A stretch of DNA of 64,000 nucleotides from Candidatus Omnitrophota bacterium (GTDB lineage: Bacteria > Omnitrophota > Gorgyraeia > Duberdicusellales > 4484-171). Made by a program: the position numbers and the translations under genes. Positions 8,846-63,256 of the stretch are shown here, in pieces. How positions within the stretch are numbered: position 1 is the first letter of the stretch; each line of letters starts with the position of its first letter. The stretch spans positions 192,001 to 256,000 of the forward strand of contig JAIPGM010000003.1 of the NCBI GenBank assembly GCA_021735655.1, read 5' to 3'. The notes under the pieces were generated by a model. It saw only the letters and a program-made list of their open reading frames with translations. It was not told the origin of the DNA and made no database searches.

Positions 8846-10108
8846 ATGAAAAAATTTATAAAAGTTATACGTTGGTTATACCCAGGCTTGCGGATAAAGC
8901 GGTGGGTAGGATTATTAGTTTTAAGTAGTTTTTTCGTGATTTTTTCTACGGTTCGTTTTATCTATGATGTTGATCCGGTTTTGCGAATATTCGATTTGGT
9001 TTTATTTGTATTTTCTTTCGCCGGTTTTATTGCTGGGGTAAAATCATTGATTGAGAGTTTTTTTGAAGCCATTTATCCTGGGAAGAATAAAGAACTGATT
9101 GATATAATTTACGAAAAACGATTTCTTTCCAAGGGACCAAAAATTGTAGCTATTGGTGGAGGAACTGGCTTGTCAACCATCCTTGAAGGCTTAAAGAAAT
9201 ACACCGCGAATATAACCGCAATCGTTACTGTGGCTGATGAAGGAGGGTCTTCGGGGCGATTGCGTGAAGAATTTGGAATATTGCCACCGGGTGATATACG
9301 TAACTGCCTTGTTTCCTTGGCTGAGGTTCCTCAGATGATGCGTGATTTGTTTCAATATCGTTTTGAGGAAGGAGATGGTATCAAAGGCCATAGCTTTGGT
9401 AATCTTTTCATCACGGCTATGACTCAGGTGACCGGAAGTTTTAAGGATGCTGTAGAAGAATCAAGCATTGTTTTAGCCATCCGGGGAAGGGTTTTGCCTT
9501 CGAGCCTTGATCGGATTCGTCTTAAGGCTGAATACGGTGATGGGACAACTAAAGAGGGAGAAGATAAGATTCCTGACGAGGGAAGATCAATAAAGAACAT
9601 TTGTCTTATTCCTGATGACCCTAAGCCAAATCCCGAAGCAATTGAAGCAATCCGCGAGGCTGAAATAATAGTTTTTGGTCCGGGAAGTCTATTCACTAGC
9701 GTTATTCCAAATCTTTTGATTGGTCAGATTAAAGATGAGATTTCGAAGCGCGATGTTATGAAGTTGTATATTTGTAATGTTATGACTCAAAATGGCGAAA
9801 CTGATGGTTTTACAGCTTTTGATCATTTCAATACAATTGTTTCACACACTAAGAAAAATGTGATTAATAGCTGTTTGGTGAATTCGGGACGTCTTGAACA
9901 TCGTCTTTTAGTTAAATATGCTCAGGAGAAGTCTTTTCCGGTTATCTTTGATCGTGAGCGTTTTAAAAAGAAAGGCGTGGGAATATTTGAGGCCAATGTT
10001 GTTAGTAGAAGCAATTATTTAAGGCATGATTCAGAAAGAGTGTCTAAGGAAATTATAAATATTTATAACTATCGGAAGCGACGATGGAAAGTTTGGAAAA
10101 GAAAATAA
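8846..10108 (+). CDS. YvcK/CofD-family gluconeogenesis-factor-like protein with an atypical ~95-aa N-terminal extension carrying two predicted TM helices
   Basis: The core IVAIGGGTGLSTILEGLK...GPGSLFTSVIPNLL matches YvcK/UPF0052. The N-terminus has two hydrophobic helices (GLLVLSSFFVIFSTV; LVLFVFSFAGFIAGV). Confidence 0.7.
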   Translation: MKKFIKVIRWLYPGLRIKRWVGLLVLSSFFVIFSTVRFIYDVDPVLRIFDLVLFVFSFAGFIAGVKSLIESFFEAIYPGKNKELIDIIYEKRFLSKGPKIVAIGGGTGLSTILEGLKKYTANITAIVTVADEGGSSGRLREEFGILPPGDIRNCLVSLAEVPQMMRDLFQYRFEEGDGIKGHSFGNLFITAMTQVTGSFKDAVEESSIVLAIRGRVLPSSLDRIRLKAEYGDGTTKEGEDKIPDEGRSIKNICLIPDDPKPNPEAIEAIREAEIIVFGPGSLFTSVIPNLLIGQIKDEISKRDVMKLYICNVMTQNGETDGFTAFDHFNTIVSHTKKNVINSCLVNSGRLEHRLLVKYAQEKSFPVIFDRERFKKKGVGIFEANVVSRSNYLRHDSERVSKEIINIYNYRKRRWKVWKRK

Positions 10109-10350
10109 TAGTAAATAAAGAGCATGGTTTACATGCACGGCCAGCAACTATTTTTGTCCAGTTAGCCAATAAGTTTAATTCTTCCGTTAAGGTTGTCAAG
10201 GATGGCGAAGCGGTAGACGGTAAGTCAATAATCGCTATTTTAAGTTTAGGGGTAAGCAAGGGGGCAGAAGTGGCTTTAGTTGTTGAGGGTGGTGATTCCC
10301 AAGAGGCTATGGACGAACTCAAAAAATTTTTAGAGGCTGAAAATGATTAA
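10084..10350 (+). CDS. ptsH: phosphocarrier protein HPr
   Basis: HGLHARPA active-site His15 motif, 88 aa. It overlaps the start of ptsI. Confidence 0.9.
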   Translation: MESLEKKIIVNKEHGLHARPATIFVQLANKFNSSVKVVKDGEAVDGKSIIAILSLGVSKGAEVALVVEGGDSQEAMDELKKFLEAEND

Positions 10351-12100
10351 ATTAAAAGGCATTGCTGTTAGTGGCGGAGTTGGGATCGGAACAGTTCTAA
10401 CCTTGAGAAAGGATGAGCTTTCGATTCCTAGGAGAAAAATTGCTCATGATGAGATTTCTCGCGAGATCTATCGTTTGGAAGAGGCTTTGATTGAAACTCG
10501 TCGGCAAATTTCGGACCTTCAAAAGAAGATTTCTCAAGACATTGGCTTTGATCACGGAAGGATATTCGAAGCTCATTTTTTGGTTCTTGAAGACAGGATG
10601 CTTATCGAAGATATTATTAAACAAATTAAAAATAATAAAGTTAACGTAGAGTACGCGTTTTCTCAAAGTGTAAAGAAGTATGTTGATACGCTTTTACATT
10701 TGAACGATGAATACTTAAGAGAAAGAGTTGTCGATATCGAAGATATTGCCCGCAGAGTTTTACGGACAATGTTGAAGGAAAAGGCAACTACTTTAAGTAA
10801 TTTAAAAGAAAAGGTAGTTGTTGTTGCTCATGATCTTGGCCCTTCTCAAACTGCGTCTTTGCCAAAAGAAAATGTTCTTGGGTTTGTTACTGATATCGGA
10901 GGTAGGACATCACATACTGCGATTATTGCTCGTACCTTAAGAATTCCGGCAGTCGTTGGTCTCGAAACAGCTACTGATAATATTAAGTCTGGAGATAAAA
11001 TTATAGTTGATGGGTCAACTGGCGAAGTTATAGTCAACCCGACTGATAAGGTTCTTAAAGAATATGAAAAAAAGTCAACCCTTTATGATAAAGAAATTAA
11101 AGCTATCCATATTCCCAAGGCTTTAAAGGCAACAACCAAGGATGGTAAAGAAGTTATTATTTCAGCTAATATTGAGTTACCTGAAGAATTATCTTTAGTT
11201 AAACAATACGGAGCAGAGGGTATTGGTCTTTATCGGACAGAGTATATTTTTCTGGGCCGGAGGGATTTACCTTCCGAGGAAGAGCAATATGAGGCTTATC
11301 GGTTAGTAGCTAAAAAGGTTAAGCCAAATACAGTAGTTTTTAGGACTATTGATATTGGTGGGGATAAGTTTCTTTCTCGACCAGAAGTTCCCCATGAGAT
11401 GAGTCCTTTTTTAGGTTGGCGGGCAATTAGGTTTTGTTTAGCCCGACCAGAAGTGTTTAAAGCTCAGCTACGGGCAATTTTGAGAGCTTCGGTTGAGAAA
11501 AACGTAAATGTAATGTTTCCGATGATTTCGGGGGTAGAGGAACTCAGGGCGGCCAAAGCTATTCTTAATGAGTGTAAAGGTGAACTACGTAAAGAAAACA
11601 AACATTTTGATGAAAAATTGGCAGTTGGCACGATGATTGAAGTTCCTTCGGCAGCTTTAACGGCTGATGCCTTAGCTAAAGAGAGTGATTTTTTTAGTAT
11701 TGGAACTAATGATTTGATTCAATATTCTTTAGCCGTTGATCGGGGAAACGAAAAGGTTGCTTATCTTTATGAACCGGGGCACCCGGCAGTATTGAAACTT
11801 ATAAAACAGGTTATCGATGCGGCTCATAAAAATAAGATTTGGGCAGGCATGTGCGGGGAAATGAGTGGTGAGCCTATTTTTTCATTTTTACTTTTAGGTT
11901 TAGGGCTTGATAAGTTTAGTATGTCTCCGCCTCAGATTCCTAAAATAAAAGAGTTAATCTCTAACGTTAAATTTTCTGACGCTCAAAAGATTGCCGTCAA
12001 GGCTTTAAATATTTTAACCGCCAAGGAAGTTGAAAAGTATTTTCAGGGCGAGCTAAAGAAGATTTTAAAAGATAAATTTAACCATATTTTAATGGTTTAA
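10343..12100 (+). CDS. ptsI: phosphoenolpyruvate-protein phosphotransferase (PTS Enzyme I)
   Basis: GGRTSHTAIIARTLRIPAVVG phospho-His motif and the C-terminal PEP-utilising TIM-barrel motifs. Confidence 0.9.
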   Translation: MIKLKGIAVSGGVGIGTVLTLRKDELSIPRRKIAHDEISREIYRLEEALIETRRQISDLQKKISQDIGFDHGRIFEAHFLVLEDRMLIEDIIKQIKNNKVNVEYAFSQSVKKYVDTLLHLNDEYLRERVVDIEDIARRVLRTMLKEKATTLSNLKEKVVVVAHDLGPSQTASLPKENVLGFVTDIGGRTSHTAIIARTLRIPAVVGLETATDNIKSGDKIIVDGSTGEVIVNPTDKVLKEYEKKSTLYDKEIKAIHIPKALKATTKDGKEVIISANIELPEELSLVKQYGAEGIGLYRTEYIFLGRRDLPSEEEQYEAYRLVAKKVKPNTVVFRTIDIGGDKFLSRPEVPHEMSPFLGWRAIRFCLARPEVFKAQLRAILRASVEKNVNVMFPMISGVEELRAAKAILNECKGELRKENKHFDEKLAVGTMIEVPSAALTADALAKESDFFSIGTNDLIQYSLAVDRGNEKVAYLYEPGHPAVLKLIKQVIDAAHKNKIWAGMCGEMSGEPIFSFLLLGLGLDKFSMSPPQIPKIKELISNVKFSDAQKIAVKALNILTAKEVEKYFQGELKKILKDKFNHILMV

Positions 12101-12859: not shown

Positions 12860-13918
12860 ATGCAGTTAAAACAGATGAGAGGAAAAATTGATAAGATAGA
12901 CAAAAGAATAGTCGAGTTGCTTAACCAGCGGGCTCAGGAAGTAATAAAAATAAGCCTTCTTAAGAAGAAAAAGAAATTATCTCTTTATTCTCCGGAAAGA
13001 GAGGCTAGCATGCTTGAGTCTCTTAAAAAGCTAAGCCAGGGGCCTTTGCGTGGAGAAGATATTGAAAATGTTTTTCGGGAAGTTTTATCAGCCTGTCGTT
13101 CTCAGAAGGCCAATTTGGAGATTGCCTACTTAGGGCCTCAAGGCACTTTTACTCATCTTGCGGCAATAAAGAAATTCGGCAAAAGACCGGACTATCTTCC
13201 GGTAGCAAGTATTAGTGATGTTTTTGATGCCGTCGACAGAGACCAAGCGCAATACGGAGTTGTTCCGGTTGAGAACTCTACCGAAGGGGTAATTAACTAT
13301 ACTTTGGATATGTTTTTTGGCTCATCGTTAAACATTTGCGCTGAGATAACTATGAATATTTCGCACGCCCTCTTAGCTAAAGGGTCTGAGAGTATAAAAC
13401 GGGTTTACTCTAATCCTGAAGTATTTGCTCAGTGTCGAAACTGGATAGCTGCTTCCTTAAAGGATGTTGAGTTAGTTCCAGTTTCATCGACGGCTAAAGC
13501 GGCTAAAGAAGCTAAAAAAGATAAAAATGGTGCTTGTATCGGGAATAAAATTTTGGCCAATCTTTATGGTTTGAGAATAATAGCTTCTTCAATTCAAGAC
13601 TCATCAAACAATTACACAAGATTTTTGGTAATTGCTAAAAATGATAGTCCACCTTCTGGTAAAGATAAGACCTCTATTTTGTTTTCAACTAAAGATAAAG
13701 TAGGGGCTTTGCATGATATTTTGTCATCGTTTAAGGCTTCGGGCTTAAATCTTACTAAAATAGAGTCTCGGCCTTCTAAGAAAAAAGCCTGGGAGTACTA
13801 TTTCTTTGTCGATTTTCAAGGACACAAGAGCTCTGCTTTGGTTAAGAAGTCTTTGAAGAAATTAGAGAAACAATGTTCCTTTGTTAAACTTCTTGGTTCT
13901 TACCCCTGTGAAAATTAG
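12860..13918 (+). CDS. pheA: bifunctional chorismate mutase / prephenate dehydratase (P-protein)
   Basis: An N-terminal chorismate mutase helix (LKQMRGKIDKIDKRIVELLNQR), a prephenate dehydratase core (IAYLGPQGTFTH) and a C-terminal ACT domain. Confidence 0.85.
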   Translation: MQLKQMRGKIDKIDKRIVELLNQRAQEVIKISLLKKKKKLSLYSPEREASMLESLKKLSQGPLRGEDIENVFREVLSACRSQKANLEIAYLGPQGTFTHLAAIKKFGKRPDYLPVASISDVFDAVDRDQAQYGVVPVENSTEGVINYTLDMFFGSSLNICAEITMNISHALLAKGSESIKRVYSNPEVFAQCRNWIAASLKDVELVPVSSTAKAAKEAKKDKNGACIGNKILANLYGLRIIASSIQDSSNNYTRFLVIAKNDSPPSGKDKTSILFSTKDKVGALHDILSSFKASGLNLTKIESRPSKKKAWEYYFFVDFQGHKSSALVKKSLKKLEKQCSFVKLLGSYPCEN

Positions 13919-14501
13919 CCTGTTAGTTGAGGCGTTAAAAAATATTAAGGAGATAAAAATCAAAAAAAGCTTTACTTTAATTGAATTAATTGTAGTCATC
14001 GCAATCATTGCCATTTTAGCGGCGATCATTGCACCGAATGCTTTTCGAGCAATTGAGAAAGCTAAAATATCTGCCACAGTTCAGGATTTTAAATCTTTTA
14101 AAACTGCGACTCAGGCTTATTATGCTGATGTTGGAAAGTGGCCTTGGGAGGGCGCAGTTTGGAATCCACCCAATTGGGACACCAGCAATGGCGAAGGGTA
14201 TATCAACAATGATGGTGCCTCAGGTTGGGATGGACCTTATTTGGAAGGTTGGCCAAAAGCCAATTGGGGTATGGATTTTGTTTGTTATTATTATTTGAGT
14301 GATTGGGATGCAGATGGGATAGCTGAAAGTCATTTTGTTTCAATTCGCAAGAATGCCTTCGTTACTCCTACAGGCAATTCTACAGCCTTGCCAGAACATG
14401 TTCGACAAAGGATAGATGAGATTCTTGATGACGGAGATTTGGATACCGGAAAACTTCAGATGGCTAGCGATTTGTATTTTGACTATCTACTAGTTAGATG
14501 A
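13881..14501 (+). CDS. prepilin-type N-terminal cleavage/methylation domain protein, a type IV pilin or pseudopilin and paralog of 48996..49652. The start is uncertain: the ATG at 13881 gives a 29-aa leader overlapping pheA, and an ATC at 13959 behind an AAGGAG is an alternative.
   Basis: Class III signal KKS|FTLIELIVVIAIIAILAAIIAP with Glu at +5. The C-terminus is rich in W/G/N and contains the GWDGPYLEGW motif. Confidence 0.75.
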   Translation: MLNFLVLTPVKISLLVEALKNIKEIKIKKSFTLIELIVVIAIIAILAAIIAPNAFRAIEKAKISATVQDFKSFKTATQAYYADVGKWPWEGAVWNPPNWDTSNGEGYINNDGASGWDGPYLEGWPKANWGMDFVCYYYLSDWDADGIAESHFVSIRKNAFVTPTGNSTALPEHVRQRIDEILDDGDLDTGKLQMASDLYFDYLLVR

Positions 14502-19944: not shown

Positions 19945-20511
19945 ATGAATAAAAAAAGTCAGTTACGAGAGTGGATTGAAGCTTTGGTTGTTGCTGGGGC
20001 GATAGCTATATTTGCCAGGAGTTTTTTCTTTCAAATTTATAAGATCCCTACGACTTCTATGGTTCCAACCCTTATGCCTGGCGATAAGATTTTTGTGAGC
20101 AAATTAACCTATGGCCCTAAGGTACCATTTACGCCTTTTCGTATTAAAGGTTTTGCTAAACCGCAAAGGGGAGAAGTGGTAGTGTTTATACCTCCACATG
20201 ATCGAAAGAAAGCCTATATTAAAAGATTGATTGGGCTACCTGGGGATAAAGTAGTTATTAAGGGAGGGAATATCTATATTAACGAGAAGATGGTGGTTGA
20301 TTCGAAAATGACACATTATTATTATAATCAGGGAGAATATGCAAAAGAGGAAGAGCCTATAGTTGTTCCCGAAGACCAGTATTTTTTTCTCGGCGACAAT
20401 AGTATTTCATCATTGGATAGCCGATACTGGGGATTTGTTGATAAAAAAGATGTTGTTGGTAAGGCTATATTTATTTGGTGGCCGCCTAGGCGGATAACCA
20501 TGATTGAGTAA
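19945..20511 (+). CDS. lepB: signal peptidase I
   Basis: Catalytic Ser region PTTSMVPTL and the box E motif GDNSISSLDSRYWGFV. Confidence 0.88.
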   Translation: MNKKSQLREWIEALVVAGAIAIFARSFFFQIYKIPTTSMVPTLMPGDKIFVSKLTYGPKVPFTPFRIKGFAKPQRGEVVVFIPPHDRKKAYIKRLIGLPGDKVVIKGGNIYINEKMVVDSKMTHYYYNQGEYAKEEEPIVVPEDQYFFLGDNSISSLDSRYWGFVDKKDVVGKAIFIWWPPRRITMIE

Positions 20512-28770: not shown

Positions 28771-29388
28771 ATGAGAAAAGCCCAAATAAAAAGAAAGACT
28801 AATGAAGTGGACATAAAGGGTAATTTTGTTGTTGATGGGGAAGGCAAAACCAAGCTAAATACTAGTTTTGAGCCGCTCAATCATTTATTGACCCTTTTTG
28901 CCTTTCACGGTTTGTTTGATTTAGATTTAGCGGCTGAAGGCGATCTTCAGCATCATATAATTGAAGATATTGGCATAGCTTTAGGTAAGGCCTTCAAGGA
29001 AGCTTTGGGTGATAAAAGTGGTATCAATCGGTACGGTAGCTTTTCAGCAACCATGGATAAAGTGGTGGTTGAAGCTAATGTTGACATATCGGGTAGGCCA
29101 TCTTTACATAGAGAAATTACCGCGGCCAATAAAGTTGGTGTCGATACAATTTTAGATAGTGGGACCTTCGATGATACTAGCTTTACCGCTAAACATGCCG
29201 AAGAGTTTTTAGAAGCTTTTACTCAGCATGGGGGATTGAGCCTGGTCTATAACATAAAGTCAGGAGAAGGTGATCTTCATCACATTCTGGAAGCTCTTTT
29301 TAAAGCGATGGGCAAGGCTCTAGATCAAGCTACCCAGATTGATCCACGCCGCAAAGGCATTCCTTCGACAAAAGGAATAATTGATTAA
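28771..29388 (+). CDS. hisB: imidazoleglycerol-phosphate dehydratase (monofunctional)
   Basis: IGPD motifs (the HHIIEDIGIALG and GEGDLHHILEALFKAMG regions). Confidence 0.85.
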   Translation: MRKAQIKRKTNEVDIKGNFVVDGEGKTKLNTSFEPLNHLLTLFAFHGLFDLDLAAEGDLQHHIIEDIGIALGKAFKEALGDKSGINRYGSFSATMDKVVVEANVDISGRPSLHREITAANKVGVDTILDSGTFDDTSFTAKHAEEFLEAFTQHGGLSLVYNIKSGEGDLHHILEALFKAMGKALDQATQIDPRRKGIPSTKGIID

Positions 29389-29403
29389 TTAGTAATTAAA
29401 ATT

Positions 29404-30003
29404 ATGATAGTAGTTGTTGATTACGGAATGGGTAATTTAAAAAGCGTAGCTAACGCTTGTAGGCTTTTAGGAAAACCGGCTATAGTTACTGATTCTAAGG
29501 AAGTAATAGCTAAGGCTGAGAAGATAATTTTTCCTGGTGTTGGTCATTTTGCTCAGGCGATGAAAGAGCTTAAAAAGCGAGGTTTGATTTCGGTAATTAA
29601 GAAAAAGATAGCCGAAGGCGCTCCTTTTTTCGGTATCTGTTTAGGTATGCAGATATTATTTGAGGAAAGCCAGGAAGCCCCGGGACTAAAGGGTCTAGGA
29701 GTTATTAAAGGAAAGGTTAAGAAGTTTAAAGATAAGAGTTTGCGTATTCCTCATATGGGTTGGAATCAGATAAATATTAAAAAGCCAACTATGTTTAAAG
29801 GGGTTAAAGACAGAAGTTTTCTTTACTTTGTTCACTCCTACTATTGTGAACCAAAAGATAAGAAAATAGTTGCAACTACTACTGATTATGGGGTTGAATT
29901 TGTTTCAAGCATAAGTGTTGAAAATATCTGGGCAGTTCAATTCCACGCTGAGAAAAGTCAAAGATTAGGCCTTAAGCTTTTCGATAACTTTTTAAAACAA
30001 TGA
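29404..30003 (+). CDS. hisH: imidazole glycerol phosphate synthase, glutamine amidotransferase subunit
   Basis: Class I GATase catalytic Cys in GICLGMQ, and the His in VQFHAE. Confidence 0.88.
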   Translation: MIVVVDYGMGNLKSVANACRLLGKPAIVTDSKEVIAKAEKIIFPGVGHFAQAMKELKKRGLISVIKKKIAEGAPFFGICLGMQILFEESQEAPGLKGLGVIKGKVKKFKDKSLRIPHMGWNQINIKKPTMFKGVKDRSFLYFVHSYYCEPKDKKIVATTTDYGVEFVSSISVENIWAVQFHAEKSQRLGLKLFDNFLKQ

Positions 30004-48995: not shown

Positions 48996-49652
48996 TTGGC
49001 GATGAGGAAGAGTTTTACTTTAATCGAGTTGATTGTAGTCATTGCGATTATCGCAATTCTAGCAGCAATCATCGCCCCTAATGCTTTTAGAGCAATCCAA
49101 AAAGCCAAGGCGTCTAGAATAATAGCTGACTTCACTGCTATTAAGAGTGCAAGCATGAGCTTTTATGCTGATACCGGTAGTTGGCCGGTAAATATTGAAC
49201 CTAGGCCAGATCCCGGAGGTACTAATTCTTGGACTTGGATAAAAAGTGGCCAGCATCCTCTTATGGATAATCTTAATAATTGGATTGGTTGGGACGGACC
49301 TTATCTAGAAAGCTCTTTAGCTTCGCCTTCTCCGCCTACTGGTGTTCCGGGCTGCACAAGCCCCGGATACTATTATACCCAATGGTGGGGCAGCGGTTGG
49401 CATGCGGGAGGTTATGGCAAATTTGATTTGGATAAAAATCCAAGTACCGGCGGAGCTTGTTATATAGCTGCTACTGGCTGTGAAGTTAATAGCGCTTGGA
49501 GTATAAATATTTTTCCTATACCTGCGGACGTGATGAAAAGTATCAACCTGGCTTTAGATGGTGACGATTCTTTTGATGATATGCTCGGGCGAGTGCAGGT
49601 TTATAGCGGTTGCGATGGTTTAGTAAGTTTTTACGTTTCTCATCCGATATAG
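48996..49652 (+). CDS. prepilin-type N-terminal cleavage/methylation domain protein, a putative major pilin or pseudopilin and paralog of 13881..14501. The likely start is the ATG at 49002 (MRKS|FTLIEL).
   Basis: Class III signal MRKS|FTLIELIVVIAIIAILAAIIAPNAFRAIQKAKA with Glu+5, and a C-terminal GWDGPYLES motif shared with the 13881 protein. Confidence 0.8.
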   Translation: MAMRKSFTLIELIVVIAIIAILAAIIAPNAFRAIQKAKASRIIADFTAIKSASMSFYADTGSWPVNIEPRPDPGGTNSWTWIKSGQHPLMDNLNNWIGWDGPYLESSLASPSPPTGVPGCTSPGYYYTQWWGSGWHAGGYGKFDLDKNPSTGGACYIAATGCEVNSAWSINIFPIPADVMKSINLALDGDDSFDDMLGRVQVYSGCDGLVSFYVSHPI

Positions 49653-55556: not shown

Positions 55557-55973
55557 ATGGGGAGGCGTTGTAAGAACAAAAATAAATCATTTTCGCTCGT
55601 TGAAATTATCACGGTGATAATCATATTGGGGATTTTAGCGGCAATTGCTTCTCCCTCATATCACAGGATGATTGAGAGAAGCAGGGGCAAACACGCTGAG
55701 TTTAATCTCATGGCTGTTTATAATGCTCAGAAACGACATCGCTTGGCTCAGAAGACCTACTATCAGTGTGTTAGTGCTCCTTGTGGTTCTCAAGAATTAG
55801 AAGATCACTTGGGAGTGTATATAAATGACCCTTATTTTAATTATGGAATAGTAGCTAACACGACTACTTTTACGGCAACAGCTACTAGGATAAATAGTAA
55901 TTTGTGTCTTGGCGCGACTATGAATGTGAGTGACAGTGGAAGTGAACCTATAAAAGGATGTGATCTTTGGTGA
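55557..55973 (+). CDS. minor pilin / pseudopilin (GspH/FimT-like), Ser at -1
   Basis: MGRRCKNKNKS|FSLVEIITVIIILGILAAIASP is a class III signal with Glu+5. Length is 138 aa. Its stop overlaps the next start (GTGA). Confidence 0.75.
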   Translation: MGRRCKNKNKSFSLVEIITVIIILGILAAIASPSYHRMIERSRGKHAEFNLMAVYNAQKRHRLAQKTYYQCVSAPCGSQELEDHLGVYINDPYFNYGIVANTTTFTATATRINSNLCLGATMNVSDSGSEPIKGCDLW

Positions 55974-57538
55974 AAAATAGATTGAATAAAAAGGCTCGAG
56001 GTAACCGGCGTATTTTTGGGGCTTTCGGAGTCTTGATTTTGGCGGCTCTTTTTCTTAGCTCAAGCTATTTCTTTGAATATTCATTTGCTCAAACACACCC
56101 TTTTCTAAAATATTTCCCAGCCAATGAAGAAATAATTACTTATTCTACCGATGGATTTAGCGGTTATCCTTTAGCTTTAACTGAAATAACAAACTGTACT
56201 CCGCCCAGTTTTGGCGGAGTAGATTTATTTAAGGCTCTAGCTGATTGTAATGCTTGTATGGGTTGGAAGGAGGGCTGCGCTGATTGTTGTATTAATCCAA
56301 CAACTCCGCCAGAGTACTTTTGTGCTCCCAGTGCAACGGATCCTGGGCCTAGTGGTGGATATAATCCAGTGCCTTTTAGTGAAAATTGCGACGGCTCAAC
56401 TCGAGTTTCCTGTACTACCTGTGGTCCTACCTTTTGTGGTCTTGATCCTGTGTTTGATAATTGTACTGGCTTTAATCCCTTGAATGTTGTTAGTGGCGAT
56501 ATTCCTAATTGTCAGCAGGCAGGATGTCCGATTTCAGATGATTATAGCTCTGTTGGTTGCGTTAGTGTTGGTTCCCCTCCTGAAACATATTGCATTGGAG
56601 ATAAAACTCCTCTTGATAAAGGTTGTGTTCCTGTAACTGAAGCCCAAGCAGTAGCAAGCTTGGGGTATAATCCGTTATTCCATACTTCAAGCACTGGGAG
56701 TGATTTTTATACAGTTACTACTCATCCAGCTGGGACTTTTAACGATACTGATGACGTTACAGTTGCCTTTGATAATGAAGGCATAACTTTTGATCCAGAC
56801 AATGATCCCTGCTTTCAGTATGGTCCAGGAGCCTTTTTAAATTATATTAATTCTTGTTCTGTTTATGCTGATGCTGCAGAGGTTGGATTTAAGGATAATC
56901 ACTGTTGTCAGTCTGGAGTATGTAGTGGTGCGGGCATGGGCGAGTGCGATACTAGCGGTGGCAATACAGCTACTATAGCCGATGACGGTGGTTGTACGAG
57001 CATAATGAATAATTGGGATAATCTTATACCTGTTTCTGCAGGGGTTAGTAAAAATTGCCATGCAGTTCAAGCTTTTGAATGTGTTGCTTTGCAAGAATTA
57101 GTAAATAACTGCATACAGAGTAATAACCAGTCTGAATGTAGTGCTTGTTTTGTTGAAATTGATTCAGATTTTCGCTATGAATTTGTGCCAAAAAGCGGAG
57201 AGTCTTTAGTTCTTGTTTGGCTTATTGAGGCGGTACCTGATATGCCAGCGGGCATGAACCCTAATTTTAATACCTATTTTTATAGCATGGTTAGGGTATT
57301 TGAACAGGGTGGAAGCGAACTCGGTCTTCCTACGAATATTGTACATCAGAAAAATTTTACTTCCGCCTTTAGTGTTTTTGGCGCAACATCAATAGATTCA
57401 TCATGGCTTACACCGGGTAAAAAATACGAAATAAGGGTATCTTATTTTATACCTAACGACTCTAATATTCCTCTTGGCGAACACTTAACGATGACCGTAA
57501 ACCGCATGGAACTGGATGTTTTCAGAGTGCGGGAGTAG
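55967..57538 (+). CDS. cysteine-rich secreted or membrane-anchored protein with no recognisable homology; a putative pilus-associated adhesin. The start is a TTG at 55967 or a GTG at 55970.
   Basis: N-terminal signal-anchor KKARGNRRIFGAFGVLILAALFL. About 30 Cys occur in residues 75-390, for example ADCNACMGWKEGCADCC and HCCQSGVCSGAGMGEC. The C-terminal ~130 aa are Cys-free and beta-rich. Lysine is almost absent, unlike the rest of the window. Confidence 0.6.
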   Translation: MVKNRLNKKARGNRRIFGAFGVLILAALFLSSSYFFEYSFAQTHPFLKYFPANEEIITYSTDGFSGYPLALTEITNCTPPSFGGVDLFKALADCNACMGWKEGCADCCINPTTPPEYFCAPSATDPGPSGGYNPVPFSENCDGSTRVSCTTCGPTFCGLDPVFDNCTGFNPLNVVSGDIPNCQQAGCPISDDYSSVGCVSVGSPPETYCIGDKTPLDKGCVPVTEAQAVASLGYNPLFHTSSTGSDFYTVTTHPAGTFNDTDDVTVAFDNEGITFDPDNDPCFQYGPGAFLNYINSCSVYADAAEVGFKDNHCCQSGVCSGAGMGECDTSGGNTATIADDGGCTSIMNNWDNLIPVSAGVSKNCHAVQAFECVALQELVNNCIQSNNQSECSACFVEIDSDFRYEFVPKSGESLVLVWLIEAVPDMPAGMNPNFNTYFYSMVRVFEQGGSELGLPTNIVHQKNFTSAFSVFGATSIDSSWLTPGKKYEIRVSYFIPNDSNIPLGEHLTMTVNRMELDVFRVRE

Positions 57539-57621
57539 GGATTATATAGACGCCATTGAGGGAAGAGATTAGTATAGATTAAGTATTAGGAAAAAGAAAG
57601 ATGAGTACAAGGAGGTACAAA

Positions 57622-58461
57622 ATGAAAAAGATAGCAATTTTGGCTATAGTTTCTATGTTGGTTCTGCCTCTGTTGGGTTTTGCTCAAGAAGGCCAGAATA
57701 TTGCAGTAGCACCTTTGGTGATTTCTGATGAAGGAAGCGGGACATTTACCTTAATTGAAACCCGTTGGCCTGACTTTTACAAGTACGTTCCAGCTGGGGG
57801 TTGTAGTGGATTGAGTAATTACAGTAAGAAGCGAAAGATTGAAGGAACTCCAACTTCACTTTATCCAATTTGTGGCAGTATGTTCTGCTATGTTACTGAC
57901 GCTATCGATCCATCAACCGGCACTCTTCACAGCTATCCGAATGCCGGGGCTCCAGCAGGTTATAACGTAGTTTATGAATATGCACCTAGTAATGCTGAGT
58001 ATGTTCCAATTTCTGACTTAGGAGCAACAGTTAACTTCGATGGCGACTGGGCTGAGTATCGTGATGTGGCTAGAATTTTGGTTACCTGGACAATTAGGCT
58101 TGAAGGTTATAAGAATATTATCCAGCCTAACCGAAAACATGATCCTTGGTTTAGTGGTGGTTGTGGTGGAACTACCTATCAATCTTTTCCCGAAGGTGAT
58201 GTTTATACGAAGTTGTTCGTTAATGGCTCACCTATAGGTAATCCGGCCATAATGACTATACCTTATGGCGGAAAGGGTTCAGCCTCAGGCGTAGTTGATC
58301 CAACCCATACCGGAAGCGTTGCGCTTACACCGGACATGTTCGGAGGATCTTTCCCAGCAACTTTGAATCTTGCAATTAAGGCTTACAATGACACTTGCAT
58401 GTCAGTTCAAAGTCCTAATGGCATGAGGAATTTAGTTGTTACAGTAACACCGATTAACTAG
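57622..58461 (+). CDS. secreted protein of unknown function (Sec signal peptide). The start is the ATG at 57622 behind an AAGGAGG; the track ORF starts at 57601.
   Basis: Signal MKKIAILAIVSMLVLPLLGFA|QEG and six Cys (CSG, ICGSMFC, GGCGG, DTC). No family recognised. Confidence 0.6.
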   Translation: MKKIAILAIVSMLVLPLLGFAQEGQNIAVAPLVISDEGSGTFTLIETRWPDFYKYVPAGGCSGLSNYSKKRKIEGTPTSLYPICGSMFCYVTDAIDPSTGTLHSYPNAGAPAGYNVVYEYAPSNAEYVPISDLGATVNFDGDWAEYRDVARILVTWTIRLEGYKNIIQPNRKHDPWFSGGCGGTTYQSFPEGDVYTKLFVNGSPIGNPAIMTIPYGGKGSASGVVDPTHTGSVALTPDMFGGSFPATLNLAIKAYNDTCMSVQSPNGMRNLVVTVTPIN

Positions 58462-58475
58462 AATTAAAGAAGACA

Positions 58476-58518
58476 AGACATAGAGGGCTAATTCCGGCCC
58501 TCTATGTCTATTTATTAT
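58476..58518 (+). terminator. rho-independent terminator after the secreted-protein gene
   Basis: A 13-bp perfect stem, AGACATAGAGGGC / GCCCTCTATGTCT, with an 8-nt loop and followed by ATTTATTAT. Confidence 0.55.
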
Positions 58519-58596
58519 AGGTAAAGTTTATCTTTCTTATTGGCCTTTCTGGCGTTATAATATTTATAGTTCGTTAAAATAAAAGTTGTTTTATAA

Positions 58597-59493
58597 ATGA
58601 AACATAAGGGATTAACCCTCATTGAGATAGTAGTTTCGGTAGTTTTAATCGGTATAGCTTTAATTGCTTTGGGAACAGCTTTAGTTACCGGAAAACACTT
58701 CATAAAAAGAGCTGAAAATGACGGCCGCGCTTTAAGCATAGCCTTGTCGCACAAAGAAGAACTTCTTAGTCGTTCTTATGACCATGCTGATTTATGTCCG
58801 GGTCTTTTTGGTTCCTCTTGTACGCAGAGTAATCCGGTTGGGTCGCCGGTAGATGGTTTTTTTAATTGGACCACGGTAGTAACTAATCGACGGGCTTGCA
58901 ACACCGGTAGCACTCGTTGTATTCCCTATAAAGAAATTATTGCTCAAGTTAATTATCCTGAAGAGGCAATCTCTGGCGCTAACAGTGGCATAACTAAAAG
59001 AGTTACCGTAAAGGATATAATTCCTTTTCCTAAGGTGCATCTTAGTGAGGCTAATACTGGGGTAGTTACCTGTGATGCTGCTGCTGGATGTGAAGTCCTT
59101 TTTGGCATTGGTAATGAAACAGTAGTTGGATCCGGTGGCGATTCCTTATCAATAGATCTTCCGGCTTACCCAGTAGAAAAAGATCTTTTAGTTATTTACA
59201 ATATTGCAATTAATATCGAATTAAACGGAGCAGGCATTCAAAATGCCGATAATATAGTAACTAGGTCCAGGATTATAAATAACGATAGCGGTGCTGTAAC
59301 CTGGAGTTCAATGGTGACAGTTACCCCGATTATGTCTCAGGCAGTAATTAATAGTGTTTCAAGAATTTCTATTCCTGCTGCCGGTGTTAATGATCCCCAT
59401 ACGATTGAGGTACGTTGGTATAAGCAACAAAATAGAGGTCAAATATCTGTTAAGCGATCTAGTTTGACAGTGCTTGCTTTTGAAAGGGATTAA
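58597..59493 (+). CDS. large pseudopilin-like protein (prepilin-type N-terminus, 298 aa; GspK/PilW/PilX-like size)
   Basis: MKHKG|LTLIEIVVSVVLIGIALIALGTAL with Gly-1 and Glu+5, and six Cys in the globular part. Confidence 0.7.
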   Translation: MKHKGLTLIEIVVSVVLIGIALIALGTALVTGKHFIKRAENDGRALSIALSHKEELLSRSYDHADLCPGLFGSSCTQSNPVGSPVDGFFNWTTVVTNRRACNTGSTRCIPYKEIIAQVNYPEEAISGANSGITKRVTVKDIIPFPKVHLSEANTGVVTCDAAAGCEVLFGIGNETVVGSGGDSLSIDLPAYPVEKDLLVIYNIAINIELNGAGIQNADNIVTRSRIINNDSGAVTWSSMVTVTPIMSQAVINSVSRISIPAAGVNDPHTIEVRWYKQQNRGQISVKRSSLTVLAFERD

Positions 59494-59498
59494 AAGCT

Positions 59499-60071
59499 AT
59501 GAATAGCAAAGGCTTTACTTTAATTGAGATGATTGTAGTTTTACTTGTTATTAGTTTTATAATGATTACCATTACTTCTATAGCAATTTTTTTTACCCGC
59601 CAAGTTAATTTAAGTAGGGAAAGAACGAATATGTGGAGTCAGCTAGAATATACCGTTAGTGATATGCGTACTCGTTGCGTTAGCGCTGTCACCACTATTA
59701 CCCCGCTTAGCCCTTGCGGAAGTATCACTATTAATGGTACTAGTGGTAGTAACTTTACCTTTAACGGTGAGGCAGATATATATAGTATTACTCCTGATAA
59801 TATTACTGATAATGTAAATTATACCTATAGCATACAGAATGACGGAGCCTTGATTTTACAGACTACTGGAGGCGTTACTGATGTTTTAATTGATGGAAAA
59901 TATAACCCCGAGCTAATCTTTGAACACCATTGCGAAGTCGTTGGCGGGGTGACTATTCCTGATGAGCCACATTTTATTAGGGTTAACCTTACACTTGAAA
60001 ACGTTAGCTTCGGTCTTAATGCTTCTCGGGAAGACGCAATACGTTTTTGGTTTTTGGATGTAGTACAATGA
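59499..60071 (+). CDS. minor pilin / pseudopilin (PilV/GspI-J-like)
   Basis: MNSKG|FTLIEMIVVLLVISFIMITI with a canonical Gly-1, Phe+1 and Glu+5. Length is 190 aa. Confidence 0.75.
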   Translation: MNSKGFTLIEMIVVLLVISFIMITITSIAIFFTRQVNLSRERTNMWSQLEYTVSDMRTRCVSAVTTITPLSPCGSITINGTSGSNFTFNGEADIYSITPDNITDNVNYTYSIQNDGALILQTTGGVTDVLIDGKYNPELIFEHHCEVVGGVTIPDEPHFIRVNLTLENVSFGLNASREDAIRFWFLDVVQ

Positions 60072-60460
60072 TAGCAATTGTAATTTCAATCACAGTTTCT
60101 CTTTCTATTCTCTTGAGTGCTTTTGTATCTTTTAGCCCGAGCTTTAAAGCTATAGTTGAAGGAGAGATTAAACGTAAAGCTCAAGAAAGCGCTTGGGTTT
60201 ATGCTTCGAAAAGCGGTCAACTTATTGAACGGGCTAATTCTGATGGTAACCCTCCGGATAACTTTACCTGTGTTACTGCGGCTAGTGCCTGGAATTGCAT
60301 GGGAACTGTTCCGATGCGAGAGGAAGAGTCAGGCGGCGTTTGGACTGACACTGAACATGTATGTATAGAAGTCAGTCGGTCGGCACCTGCTTTTCCGGAT
60401 TTACCTAAAATTACAGTAGAAAATGTTACTTCTAGTAGCCAAACTTGCCCCCATCACTAA
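60068..60460 (+). CDS. small membrane-anchored protein with a pilin-like hydrophobic N-terminus but no canonical cleavage motif (PilX-like?). The ATG at 60068 overlaps the preceding stop as ATGA.
   Basis: MIAIVISITVSLSILLSAFVSF N-terminal helix, Cys-containing C-terminus (FTCVTAASAWNCMG; HVCIEV; QTCPHH), and translational coupling. Confidence 0.5.
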   Translation: MIAIVISITVSLSILLSAFVSFSPSFKAIVEGEIKRKAQESAWVYASKSGQLIERANSDGNPPDNFTCVTAASAWNCMGTVPMREEESGGVWTDTEHVCIEVSRSAPAFPDLPKITVENVTSSSQTCPHH

Positions 60461-61341
60461 AGATAATGGTTTCAGGACAAACTTCAAGCCTATCTTGTTC
60501 TAAGCCGGCTTGGCTTAAAAAAAATATAAATTTGAGTTTGAATCATAAGCTAAAGACAAGGCTACGTAATCTTTCTTTAAATACGGTTTGTGAGGAATCT
60601 CGTTGTCCTAATATTTCTGAGTGTTTTTCTAAGCAGGTTGCAACTTTTTTAATTTTAGGTGATGTTTGTACTCGAGGTTGTAGTTTTTGCCTTATTGGTA
60701 AAGGTAAACCAGGCCAACTTGATTTTAATGAACCGCAGAGGATAGCGCAGGCAGCTAAACTTTTGAATTTAAATTATCTAGTTATTACTTCTCCTACTCG
60801 CGATGATCTTCTTGACGGAGGGGCAGCAATTTTTGTAGAAACCGTAAGAGAGATTCTAGCTTTAGATCCTAAAAAAAGAGTTGAGCTCTTGATACCTGAT
60901 TTTTTGGGGAAAAAAGACTCTATTGAAAAGGTAGTCGAATCAGGAGCAGAAACTATAGCTCACAATCTAGAAACTGTTCCTAAGTTATATAAGAAGGTAA
61001 GGAAAGGTGCCAGTTATCGGCGTTCCTTATTTGTTCTGGAGACTACAAAGAAGTTGAACCAGCGAATTTTTACTAAGACGGGTTTAATGTTCGGCTTGGG
61101 CGAAAAGGAAAAGGAGGTTAAGAGGGTCTTGGCTGATTTAAATTCTATAGGTTGTGATTTTTTAACTCTCGGTCAATATTTACCTCCTTCGCGAAATAAT
61201 TACCCTTTAAAAAGTTATGTTCATCCTGATACTTTTGATTATTTTAAAAATTATGCTTTAAAATTAGGTTTTAAGAATGTTATTAGTGGTCCCTACGTTC
61301 GTTCTTCATATATGGCTCATTTAATGAGTTCCGGCCTTTAA
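60445..61341 (+). CDS. lipA: lipoyl synthase
   Basis: N-terminal KPAWLKK, auxiliary cluster Cys (CEESRCPNISEC) and radical-SAM CTRGCSFC. Confidence 0.88.
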   Translation: MPPSLKIMVSGQTSSLSCSKPAWLKKNINLSLNHKLKTRLRNLSLNTVCEESRCPNISECFSKQVATFLILGDVCTRGCSFCLIGKGKPGQLDFNEPQRIAQAAKLLNLNYLVITSPTRDDLLDGGAAIFVETVREILALDPKKRVELLIPDFLGKKDSIEKVVESGAETIAHNLETVPKLYKKVRKGASYRRSLFVLETTKKLNQRIFTKTGLMFGLGEKEKEVKRVLADLNSIGCDFLTLGQYLPPSRNNYPLKSYVHPDTFDYFKNYALKLGFKNVISGPYVRSSYMAHLMSSGL

Positions 61342-61768: not shown

Positions 61769-63256
61769 ATGGCTAAAACAGTAGGATTATATTTGGGTGT
61801 AGATACTTTAGGGGTAGCAGTAGTCAGCGGCCGCAATCTCGTTAATTTTAATCAGTTTAACCTTTCTGTTGCCGAAGAGTCTAAACAGGGAGTGGTAAAT
61901 GAGGATGTCCGCTTAGAAGCTTCAATTAATAAAGCACTCAGAGAAGCGGGTGTTGTTAGTGAGAGCATATACCTTTCTTTAGCTGATCGAGATTTTATTT
62001 TTCGTTCTCTTGAAATGCCACTCATGCGTAAGGGCGAGATTGAGTCATCTTTGGTTTATGAAGTTGAGAAGTATATACCTTTTAAGATGACTGAGTTGGA
62101 GTGGACCTACGCCAGCGTGCGTTCAGCCAAAGAGAAAAAGATGAATATATCTTTTGTCGGCATCCGGGACAAAAATCTAGGGCGGATTAGAGATATCTTG
62201 GGTCGTTTGGATCTTGGTATTATTTTTATTGAGCCATCTTCTTTATCTCTATTTAGGGCACTTAAGACCTTGAAGCGGTTCTCAAAAATAAAGGATTTTG
62301 CCCTTTTGGACATTACAAAGACCGAATCCCATCTTACTTTTTTCCAGGATGAACTTCCGGTATTCAACCGTTATCTTACTATTCCTAAGAAGGAAGACTC
62401 TTTTGACACCGGTAAATTTTCCGAATCAGTAGATTTTTCTTTTCAGTACTTTAAACGTGAATTTCGTTCTTATAAACTTGATAAGTTTATCTTGGTCAGT
62501 GACATTGAGAGTAAAGAGTTAGCTTCTAGCCTTGAAGAAGGGCTACAGGTTTCAGTTGAGGCTGTTTCTTCTTCTGATATAGCCAATCGTAATGATGCCA
62601 GCGTTGAAAGCATGAAGGCTTTCGGGGCAGCAGTTCAAGATCAATTCCCTTCAGTTTTTAAATCAAGCTTCAGGAAGACCCAGATTTCTAAAGAAGGAGA
62701 GATGATTGAGATTGGCGTTGATGCTCCCGACTTAAGGATAGGTTTAATCGGAGCTCTTTTAGGTATAGGTTTGGTAGCTGCTTTTTTTACTTCTATTATT
62801 ATGGGCAATGAGGTTGTTGAAAAGAAAGCTTATGTAAATAGGCAAAGAGAGGAAGTTGTTGTTCCTAAAGGGCTTGAAAACTTTTCTTGGGATCAGTATC
62901 CGGAGGTTGTTAAGGATCTAGAGAAAAAGACCAAAGAGTTAAAAGATTCTCAAGAGTCATTTAGTAATCTTGCTAATATTTTTGAAGCTTTAAGTAGCCG
63001 CAGGGTTTTACCGGAAGGGTTGTGGCTTGAGAATTTTAGAATTACTCGTCAGAAGGGAACTAGTAATGGAAAGGTAACCGGATATCTGTTTCGTGACGAC
63101 GATCAAGATGAGCGTTCGGGCTTAGATGATTTTGTTTCCAGGCTTAAGGCCGAGCCCTCATTACAACAAGCTTTTCCGACCATTGAAATTGATTTTTCTA
63201 AGCGACAAACTAAAAAGGAATTTGAAGTTACCTATTTTTCTATAACTTTAAAGTAA
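61769..63256 (+). CDS. pilM: type IV pilus assembly PilM-PilN fusion protein (GspL-like architecture)
   Basis: Residues 1-320 are a PilM/FtsA-like actin-fold ATPase (MAKTVGLYLGVDTLGVAVVSG). A TM helix follows (LIGALLGIGLVAAFFTSIIMG), then a ~150-aa periplasmic PilN-like domain. Confidence 0.7.
   Translation: MAKTVGLYLGVDTLGVAVVSGRNLVNFNQFNLSVAEESKQGVVNEDVRLEASINKALREAGVVSESIYLSLADRDFIFRSLEMPLMRKGEIESSLVYEVEKYIPFKMTELEWTYASVRSAKEKKMNISFVGIRDKNLGRIRDILGRLDLGIIFIEPSSLSLFRALKTLKRFSKIKDFALLDITKTESHLTFFQDELPVFNRYLTIPKKEDSFDTGKFSESVDFSFQYFKREFRSYKLDKFILVSDIESKELASSLEEGLQVSVEAVSSSDIANRNDASVESMKAFGAAVQDQFPSVFKSSFRKTQISKEGEMIEIGVDAPDLRIGLIGALLGIGLVAAFFTSIIMGNEVVEKKAYVNRQREEVVVPKGLENFSWDQYPEVVKDLEKKTKELKDSQESFSNLANIFEALSSRRVLPEGLWLENFRITRQKGTSNGKVTGYLFRDDDQDERSGLDDFVSRLKAEPSLQQAFPTIEIDFSKRQTKKEFEVTYFSITLK

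Follow-up and report, generated by a model that had tools for sequence, protein, structure and literature searches.

GspG-like pilins of Omnitrophota with serine and other small residues at the predicted prepilin cleavage site

The window analyzed here is a 64,000-nucleotide stretch (positions 192,001 to 256,000) of contig JAIPGM010000003.1 from a Candidatus Omnitrophota metagenome-assembled genome, and it codes for five prepilin-type genes, of which three (49002, 13959, and 55557, named by their start coordinates in the window) have Ser immediately before the predicted cleavage site (position −1) and two (58597 and 59499) have Gly. Genes 49002 and 13959 code for GspG-like type 4 pilins of an expanded multigene family that is present throughout the phylum Omnitrophota, and Ser −1 is a trait of the phylum, shared by several pilin classes. 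The explanation that we consider likely is that these pilins carry a small residue at −1, that their leader is cut before Phe by the single broad-specificity PilD of the lineage, and that the filament is assembled by a machine of the type II secretion system (T2SS) or type IV pilus (T4P) type. We propose that Ser −1 is neither a defect nor the sign of a second pathway. An initial annotation, made from the sequence alone, had noted the Ser −1 leaders as if they were an oddity of this genome and had been unable to place 49002 and 13959 in a described pilin subfamily; both views are revised below. The parent contig is 278,835 bp; the window itself has a G+C content of 37.8%, and its DNA is also contained in the Logan assemblies of SRR12088349.

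A GspG-like pilin family with variable −1 residues

The initial annotation had picked out the five prepilin N-termini, three with Ser −1 and two with Gly −1, and all can be read in the sequence and match Pfam N_methyl above its gathering score (22.9 to 29 bits; cutoff, 21.2). Each has the short hydrophilic basic leader followed by ∼20 hydrophobic residues that characterizes PF07963, TIGR02532, and IPR012902, with Phe at +1 in four and Leu in one, and Glu at +5 in all five. The Gly or Ala that should end the leader is present as Gly in 58597 and 59499 and is replaced by Ser in 49002, 13959, and 55557.

Gene 49002 (49002 to 49652, forward strand) codes for a 216-residue protein and begins with an ATG, six nucleotides downstream of the TTG (48996) that starts the corresponding open reading frame (ORF). 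Its four-residue leader, MRKS (49002 to 49013), ends with Ser codon AGT (49011 to 49013), and cleavage is predicted before the Phe at 49014. The −1 residue and the hydrophobic α1N helix with Glu+5 together form a 29-residue block, SFTLIELIVVIAIIAILAAIIAPNAFRAI (49011 to 49097), and the motif GWDGPYLE, a hallmark of the family, lies at residues 96 to 103 (49287 to 49310). The paralog 13959 (13959 to 14501, forward strand) has the leader (M)KKS with Ser codon AGC (13968 to 13970), and its GWDGPYLE motif is at residues 89 to 96 (14223 to 14246). The ORF containing it opens at 13881 and has no ATG, GTG, or TTG near the leader, but a noncanonical ATC at 13959 sits 6 nucleotides after an AAGGAG sequence (13946 to 13961 region) and is most likely the start, giving a 180-residue protein with a family-typical four-residue leader; the TTG at 13881 is disfavored by its overlap with pheA.

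The two proteins are 40% identical overall, but the 29-residue block is identical in both, which bears out the earlier description of near-identical N-termini and a shared GWDGPYLE. Within the block 17 of 29 codons differ synonymously, so the identity reflects purifying selection; recent duplication or gene conversion is ruled out, and the pair is old, as the initial annotation had argued. It is not simply a pair, however, as at least four family paralogs are present on the contig, the others being P0034 (MKKV/F) and P0105 (MIREG/F).

A word-indexed search with the 49002 protein yields 968 relatives; among the 120 best, all names supplied by the source are of Candidatus Omnitrophica/Omnitrophota, and many include "type II secretion system protein GspG," the GspG label coming from NCBI or JGI. 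The initial annotation had suggested a profile search for the GWDGPYLE family, and an exhaustive one returns 224 clusters (50% identity) at E ≤ 1e−30; W[DNE]GPY is present in 140 of the 150 best representatives. The Trp, Gly, and Tyr of the motif are invariant in a 51-sequence alignment (A1), as is Glu+5, and Phe+1 is found in 148 of 149 representatives, such that assigning the cleavage site from Glu+5 is supported and the possibility that Glu+5 is not conserved among relatives falls away.

Several comparisons place the family as GspG-like. The protein from the 13881 ORF matches Pfam T2SSG (21.8 bits; cutoff, 21), as do 26 of the 51 aligned family members at E < 0.01; the 49002 protein has no T2SSG match. 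Alignment of the family with PulG by hhalign (probability, 98%) sets GWDGPYLE..PW on PulG GGYIRRLPQDPWG, with GWDGPYLE itself opposite PEGGYIRRLPQDPWG. The pair (41.3 and 54.7 bits) nonetheless falls below the TIGR01710 equivalog cutoff of 88.85. An AlphaFold2 model (pLDDT, 90.6) matches pilins and pseudopilins and has the lollipop fold, with a long N-terminal helix on a beta-sheet head. The Pfam N_methyl match is missing from several of the non-Gly family members.

Like GspG, PulG, and EpsG (PF08334 and TIGR01710), the Omnitrophota proteins have a class III signal peptide, Phe+1, and Glu+5, and GWDGPYLE..PW aligns with the "aromatic-G-Y-L/I ... P-W-G" region that follows the α1 helix in those proteins. 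They differ in being multicopy, in having a four-residue leader with Ser, Gly, Ala, or Thr at −1 where GspG has Gly, and in size, as the window pair (180 to 216 residues) has a larger, variable C-terminal head rich in Cys, Trp, and Gly, compared to the 134 residues of the PulG chain. Classical GspG proteins are ∼135 to 145 residues. Three type IV major pilins of solved structure, Clostridioides difficile PilA1, CofA of the CFA/III pilus of enterotoxigenic Escherichia coli (ETEC), and Vibrio cholerae TcpA, resemble the family in sequence only along the N-terminal helix and lack GWDGPYLE; in the type IVb pilins the leader is long and ends in Gly. A calcium-binding loop has been described in the C-terminal head of GspG. 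The head of the 49002 protein (residues 180 to 196) contains a conserved acidic stretch, IDxxxDDG(D/N)LxxG, in which D186 and G196 are nearly invariant in A1, and it may recall that loop, although the resemblance is suggestive only.

The −1 residue was counted in three sets of family members. Among 149 representatives of the 50% identity clusters (one of 150 has no recognizable site) it is Gly in 66, Ser in 56, Ala in 18, Thr in 6, and another residue in 3; among 114 distinct genes from an independent scan of JGI and ENA metagenome contigs the corresponding numbers are 48, 38, 15, 3, and 10. Ser is second to Gly in both of these and is the commonest residue in a more query-biased set of 232 collected members (Ser 98 [42%], Gly 86 [37%], Ala 29 [12.5%], Thr 10 [4%], and other 9). 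Small residues (Gly, Ser, Ala, and Thr) account for 96% of the 232, which argues that −1 would behave as a protease S1 site and not as a free position, and that the family proteins would be cleaved. In the same set, 78% of members have Lys or Arg at −2 and 71% have one of them at −3, and the modal leader is four residues long (68 of 149 representatives), typically MKKS.

The residue also changes among close relatives. At −1, the eight proteins most closely related to that of 49002 carry T, G, A, S, A, T, G, and S, which disposes of the prospect, raised by the initial annotation, that all orthologs would carry Gly. Single gene arrays are similarly mixed, with G, S, G, S, G, S, G, and A in array L099 and S, S, G, G, and S in L125. 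The pattern extends to pilins outside the family: S, G, S, S, S, A, and A are found in orthologs of 55557, an unrelated ComP_DUS-type pilin, and among the remaining prepilin-like genes of the metagenome contigs −1 is Gly in 14, Ala in 11, Ser in 5, and Thr in 2. Ser −1 is encoded by TCA, TCT, TCC, TCG, and AGT in the metagenome loci and by AGC at 13968 to 13970 in the window.

Comparison with other phyla used a full-length-alignment scan of genome contigs, which was saturated by the generic N-terminal pattern, returned mostly other phyla of the Planctomycetota-Verrucomicrobiota-Chlamydiota (PVC) group, and served as a control for −1 (loci L008 to L082). Gly predominates in Patescibacteria (G 23, A 1) and Planctomycetota (G 16, A 6), and Verrucomicrobiota have A 12 and G 10; Ser −1 is present in 38 of the 114 Omnitrophota genes but in none of the 68 genes of these three phyla (Fisher P = 1.6e−9). 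In Lentisphaerota/Victivallales, whose proteins have the form x/FTLIELLVVIAI..., Gly is absent from all 30 and −1 is K (7), N (4), S (3), C (3), T (3), or, in the remainder, one of E, L, I, Y, Q, D, R, F, P, and A, suggesting that the Gly −1 rule erodes to differing degrees across the PVC group. The prepilin-like families of other PVC phyla (Planctomycetota and the Victivallales FTLIELLVVIAI proteins) resemble that of Omnitrophota in having a near-identical N-terminal helix, xFTLIEL[LI]VVIAIIAIL, in being large multigene families, and in using non-Gly −1 residues, but their C-terminal domains differ. The expanded Planctomycetota proteins are presumably those known as DUF1559.

The initial annotation was also right that Ser −1 is unusual for bacteria. 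Bacterial leaders are described as ending "invariably" in Gly, with −1 Gly "absolutely critical" for cleavage in model systems (PMC4471445), or as ending in Gly or Ala (PMC10191384), and leader lengths of 6 to 26 residues are given in these reviews; by this standard the Omnitrophota pattern falls outside the textbook description. Searches of the open-access literature turned up no account of Ser −1 pilins or of the peptidase variant presented below (GxGDxD), which does not in itself prove novelty.

The prepilin peptidase of Omnitrophota

The candidate processing enzyme was found through contig L102, from a related member of the Omnitrophota, which was recovered by scanning metagenome contigs with a family alignment from which the generic N-terminal helix had been removed. 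L102 is organized with aroE, a PilD gene (275 residues; 1862 to 2689), aroC, a gene for a small protein, a two-part secretin, and a GspE/PilB ATPase, followed by a tandem run of four family genes (−1 residues G, S, C, and G), an ABC (ATP-binding cassette) transporter gene, and three genes for minor pilin-like proteins whose −1 residues are A, A, and T. This is a gsp-like setting for the family, with secretin, GspE-type ATPase, and minor pilin-like genes nearby; no GspF was seen beside the secretin, ATPase, and family genes. In contig L165, also from a related member of the Omnitrophota, a PilD gene (10001 to 10822) also lies between aroE and aroC, as in L102, the two contigs examined for this, and is followed by two family genes with Ser −1 (MRKSS/F and MKKS/F).

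The L102 PilD is a bacterial-type enzyme with A24_N_bact (E = 9e−35) and Peptidase_A24 (E = 7.6e−12) domains and contains CxxC...CxxC, IDID, and GLGD. Its 120 best homologs (P0259 to P0378, with P0290 in L165) are 54 to 64% identical to it, and many are named "prepilin peptidase [Candidatus Omnitrophica/Omnitrophota]." The L102 and L165 enzymes share the MEROPS A24A features of PilD/XcpA, GspO, TcpJ, and BfpP, namely the two-domain architecture (PF06750 and PF01478), four Cys, two catalytic Asp, and GxGD, and the motifs recur in the 120 homologs. Published source data for Omnitrophota genomes likewise list K02654 and PF01478 among the annotations (PMC10066038).

These enzymes differ from canonical A24A peptidases at three motifs, as seen by comparison with 16 control peptidases from Gamma-, Beta-, and Alphaproteobacteria, a Firmicute, and Patescibacteria. 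The controls include Neisseria gonorrhoeae PilD, an A24 peptidase encoded beside T2SS genes on pO157 (probably EtpN/GspO), an ETEC plasmid enzyme (probably of the Lng/Cof type), and one encoded beside bfpF (probably BfpP). GLGDVDF or a close variant surrounds the second catalytic Asp in 119 of the 120 Omnitrophota enzymes, replacing canonical GxGDx[K/R]; two residues after the GxGD Asp there is Asp in 119 of 120, compared to K in 13, R in 2, and A in 1 of the controls, a reversal of charge. After the first catalytic Asp, "LPD" (13 of 16 controls) is replaced by "AIPxY/H/N," and "PFGP" or its close variants by "IPYLPY." The loss of the "LPD" Asp, the change to GLGDVDF, and "IPYLPY" may widen specificity and permit four-residue leaders, judging from sequence comparison. 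No bacterial PilD sequence is present in the PDB, and hence there is no structural context for the motif changes.

The closest functional analogy is archaeal PibD, a single broad-specificity enzyme that tolerates substitutions around the cleavage site and cuts leaders of three to four residues (PMC4307647), and exceptions to Gly −1 are common in archaeal leaders (PMC4471445). The Omnitrophota enzyme nonetheless differs from archaeal class III peptidases, which lack the A24_N_bact zinc/methylase domain, and its substrates keep the bacterial FTLIE consensus, unlike those of PibD. Signal peptidase I, encoded in the window (19945 to 20511), was rejected as the processing enzyme because its cleavage takes place at the opposite membrane face, past the hydrophobic segment.

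Proposed processing and assembly of the pilins

In the mechanism that we favor, the class III signal peptide would consist of a four-residue cytoplasmic leader, M-[K/R]-[K/R]-[S/G/A/T], followed by a hydrophobic helix running from Phe+1 through Glu+5, and the prepilin would insert into the inner membrane. A single bifunctional PilD-type peptidase, with an A24 N-terminal zinc/methylase domain and an A24 peptidase domain, would then remove the leader directly before Phe, and the subunits would be polymerized by a T2SS/T4P-type machine with a secretin, a GspE/PilB ATPase, and minor pilins. The −1 position would have drifted in Omnitrophota, "Gly only" giving way to "any small residue," and would have done so in unrelated pilin classes too, as with 55557. 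Cleavage between the −1 residue and Phe is thus the predicted outcome for the Omnitrophota family.

A single broad-specificity enzyme is favored over two enzymes because L102 and L165 each have one PilD gene beside substrates that together carry five different −1 residues. The initial annotation had offered both options, a relaxed peptidase or two peptidases, and the former gains from the mixed −1 residues of orthologs, the mixed operons beside one PilD, and a PilD clade altered at three motifs flanking the catalytic Asp residues. The alternative, in which a canonical peptidase processes the Gly −1 pilins and a second one the Ser −1 (and Ala and Thr) pilins, is improbable on the sequences covered here. 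Tad pili have their own peptidase in other bacteria. Tad pili have been reported in Omnitrophota (PMC10066038), and FlaK and EppA of Methanococcus provide a precedent for parallel, substrate-specific class III peptidases (PMC4307647), but −1 flips among S, G, A, and T between closest orthologs and between neighbors in an array, and each flip would demand a switch of enzyme. The one A24 peptidase in L102 and in L165 is the only one beside their varied substrates, and the 120 best PilD homologs form one homogeneous clade with shared motifs. It is also unlikely, if slightly less so, that the proteins without Gly or Ala at −1 escape processing and are pilin-like proteins anchored in the inner membrane, acting as nonpolymerizing decoys or regulators. 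The strict need for −1 Gly in model systems (PMC4471445) and the occasional V, H, F, or Y at −1 in the family fit such a role, and the essentially unconstrained −1 of Lentisphaerota raises the prospect that some pilin-like proteins of the PVC group stay uncleaved. Nevertheless, the preponderance of small −1 residues in Omnitrophota implies selection by a protease pocket, and Ser is the first or second commonest residue there, not a rare degenerate state. Moreover, Phe+1, Glu+5, and the α1N helix are equally conserved in Ser −1 and Gly −1 members, and this conservation would be needed in the former only if a free N-terminal Phe is packed in a filament. An artefact, whether through sequencing or assembly error, wrong starts, or a cleavage site displaced by one residue, is effectively refuted: the start of 13959 had to be placed at an ATC for lack of ATG, GTG, or TTG near the motif, but Ser −1 recurs in hundreds of independent NCBI, JGI, ENA, and Logan assemblies and is encoded by five different Ser codons of both families (TCN and AGY), and the register of Phe+1 and Glu+5 is fixed by the invariant FTLIE.

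Several observations weigh against processing by a single broad PilD and assembly by a T2SS/T4P-type machine. Genes 49002 and 13959 are orphans among housekeeping genes, with no adjoining assembly machine in the window, and no A24 peptidase was found among ORFs of at least 100 codons in the window or in the flanks and paralog contexts from the same sample (L001, L002, and L083 to L085) by regular expression, tblastn, or hidden Markov model searches. About 4% of the family have a bulky or odd −1 residue (V, H, F, Y, N, or C), such that either these members are unprocessed or tolerance extends beyond "small" residues. The GLGDVDF change is correlated with Ser usage and no more than that, as the control set is small (16) and includes no other PVC phylum, and cleavage and methylation of Omnitrophota pilins are predictions from the sequences. 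A peptidase was also sought around family members P0034, P0052, and P0011, where only housekeeping neighbors were seen.

A further proposal, possible but doubtful as it stands, is that the Omnitrophota PilDs constitute a distinct specificity class in which S1 and S2 are remodeled by GLGDVDF, with the Asp of "LPD" and the Gly of "PFGP" both lost as well, such that M-K-K-x would be read and Ser, Thr, Ala, Cys, or Gly accepted, with the Gly −1 rule breaking stepwise across the PVC group (from G/A in Planctomycetota and Verrucomicrobiota to S/G/A/T in Omnitrophota and almost any residue in Lentisphaerota). If so, pattern rules that demand Gly or Gly/Ala at −1 would undercount pilins in PVC phyla; PROSITE PS00409 and PilFind are rules of this type. 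A phylum whose leaders are four residues long and end in Ser as often as in Gly makes the −1 rule lineage dependent. What determines the specificity of prepilin peptidases is poorly understood, and a clade whose active site carries a defined variation open to testing provides a natural experiment on it. Omnitrophota are regarded as ultra-small predators or parasites that depend on pili for attachment to hosts, and correct recognition of their large, variable pilin repertoire therefore bears on their biology.

Gene neighborhoods and the minor-pilin operon

Both GspG-like genes of the window stand singly among housekeeping genes, 13959 between pheA and hisC and 49002 between rmuC-DUF167 and a Cu-oxidase_4 gene, and the gsp operon genes (GspD, GspE, GspF, and GspH to GspK) do not accompany them. 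Searches around the two paralogs revealed no sigma-70-like promoter and no intrinsic terminator. Elsewhere, tandem arrays of four to seven family genes are present on metagenome contigs (L088, L099, L125, and L102), and L088 packs seven copies into 4.4 kb. Among close relatives the insertion points of family genes vary in a syntenic housekeeping backbone: in L086 (hisD and recA 90% and 88% identical in amino acid sequence to those of the window) a family gene separates hisB from hisH (9369 to 11152), which are adjacent in the window (28771 to 30003), and L087, another relative, has family genes after mazG and after rpsU (2165 to 2791 and 10001 to 10636). These shifting positions suggest that single pilin genes are rapidly gained, lost, or moved. 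Paralog P0034 (L002, 3622 to 6980), whose N-terminus is MKKV/FTLIEL with Val −1, is ∼1 kb upstream of comEA-like and comEC-like genes and has a T2SSE ATPase gene of PilT size ∼9.5 kb downstream; it may be linked to DNA uptake.

The other three prepilin-type genes of the window are in a minor-pilin operon (55557 to 60460) with all of its genes on the forward strand. It opens with 55557 (55557 to 55973), coding for a PilE/ComP_DUS-type prepilin with leader MGRRCKNKNKS, predicted site NKNKS/FSLVEI, and Ser −1 codon TCA (55587 to 55589). The next two genes code for a 523-residue Cys-rich protein with a hydrophobic N-terminal segment (55967 to 57538) and a 286-residue protein with a signal-peptide-like N-terminus (57601 to 58461), neither of which has a Pfam or NCBIfam match; they may be pilus-tip or adhesin components. 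These are followed by a PilV-like minor prepilin (58597 to 59493; MKHKG/LTLIE, Gly −1), with a weak TIGR02523 PilV match and an N_methyl score of 22.9 bits, by a minor prepilin (59499 to 60071; MNSKG/FTLIEM, Gly −1), and by the final gene (60068 to 60460), which codes for a 130-residue protein with a hydrophobic N-terminus and a putative PilX-like role.

Separated from this operon by lipA and a small helix-turn-helix gene (60445 to 61341 region), a gene for a PilM-like protein of 495 residues (61769 to 63256, forward strand) opens a type IVa pilus machinery operon, the sole such machine visible near the window. The operon continues past the window end (L083, 11490 to 17878) with genes for two small proteins, a PilQ secretin, a PilB ATPase, a PilC platform protein, and two pilins, one with Gly −1 (MRKG/F) and one with Ser −1 (SRPS/F) in the same pilus operon.

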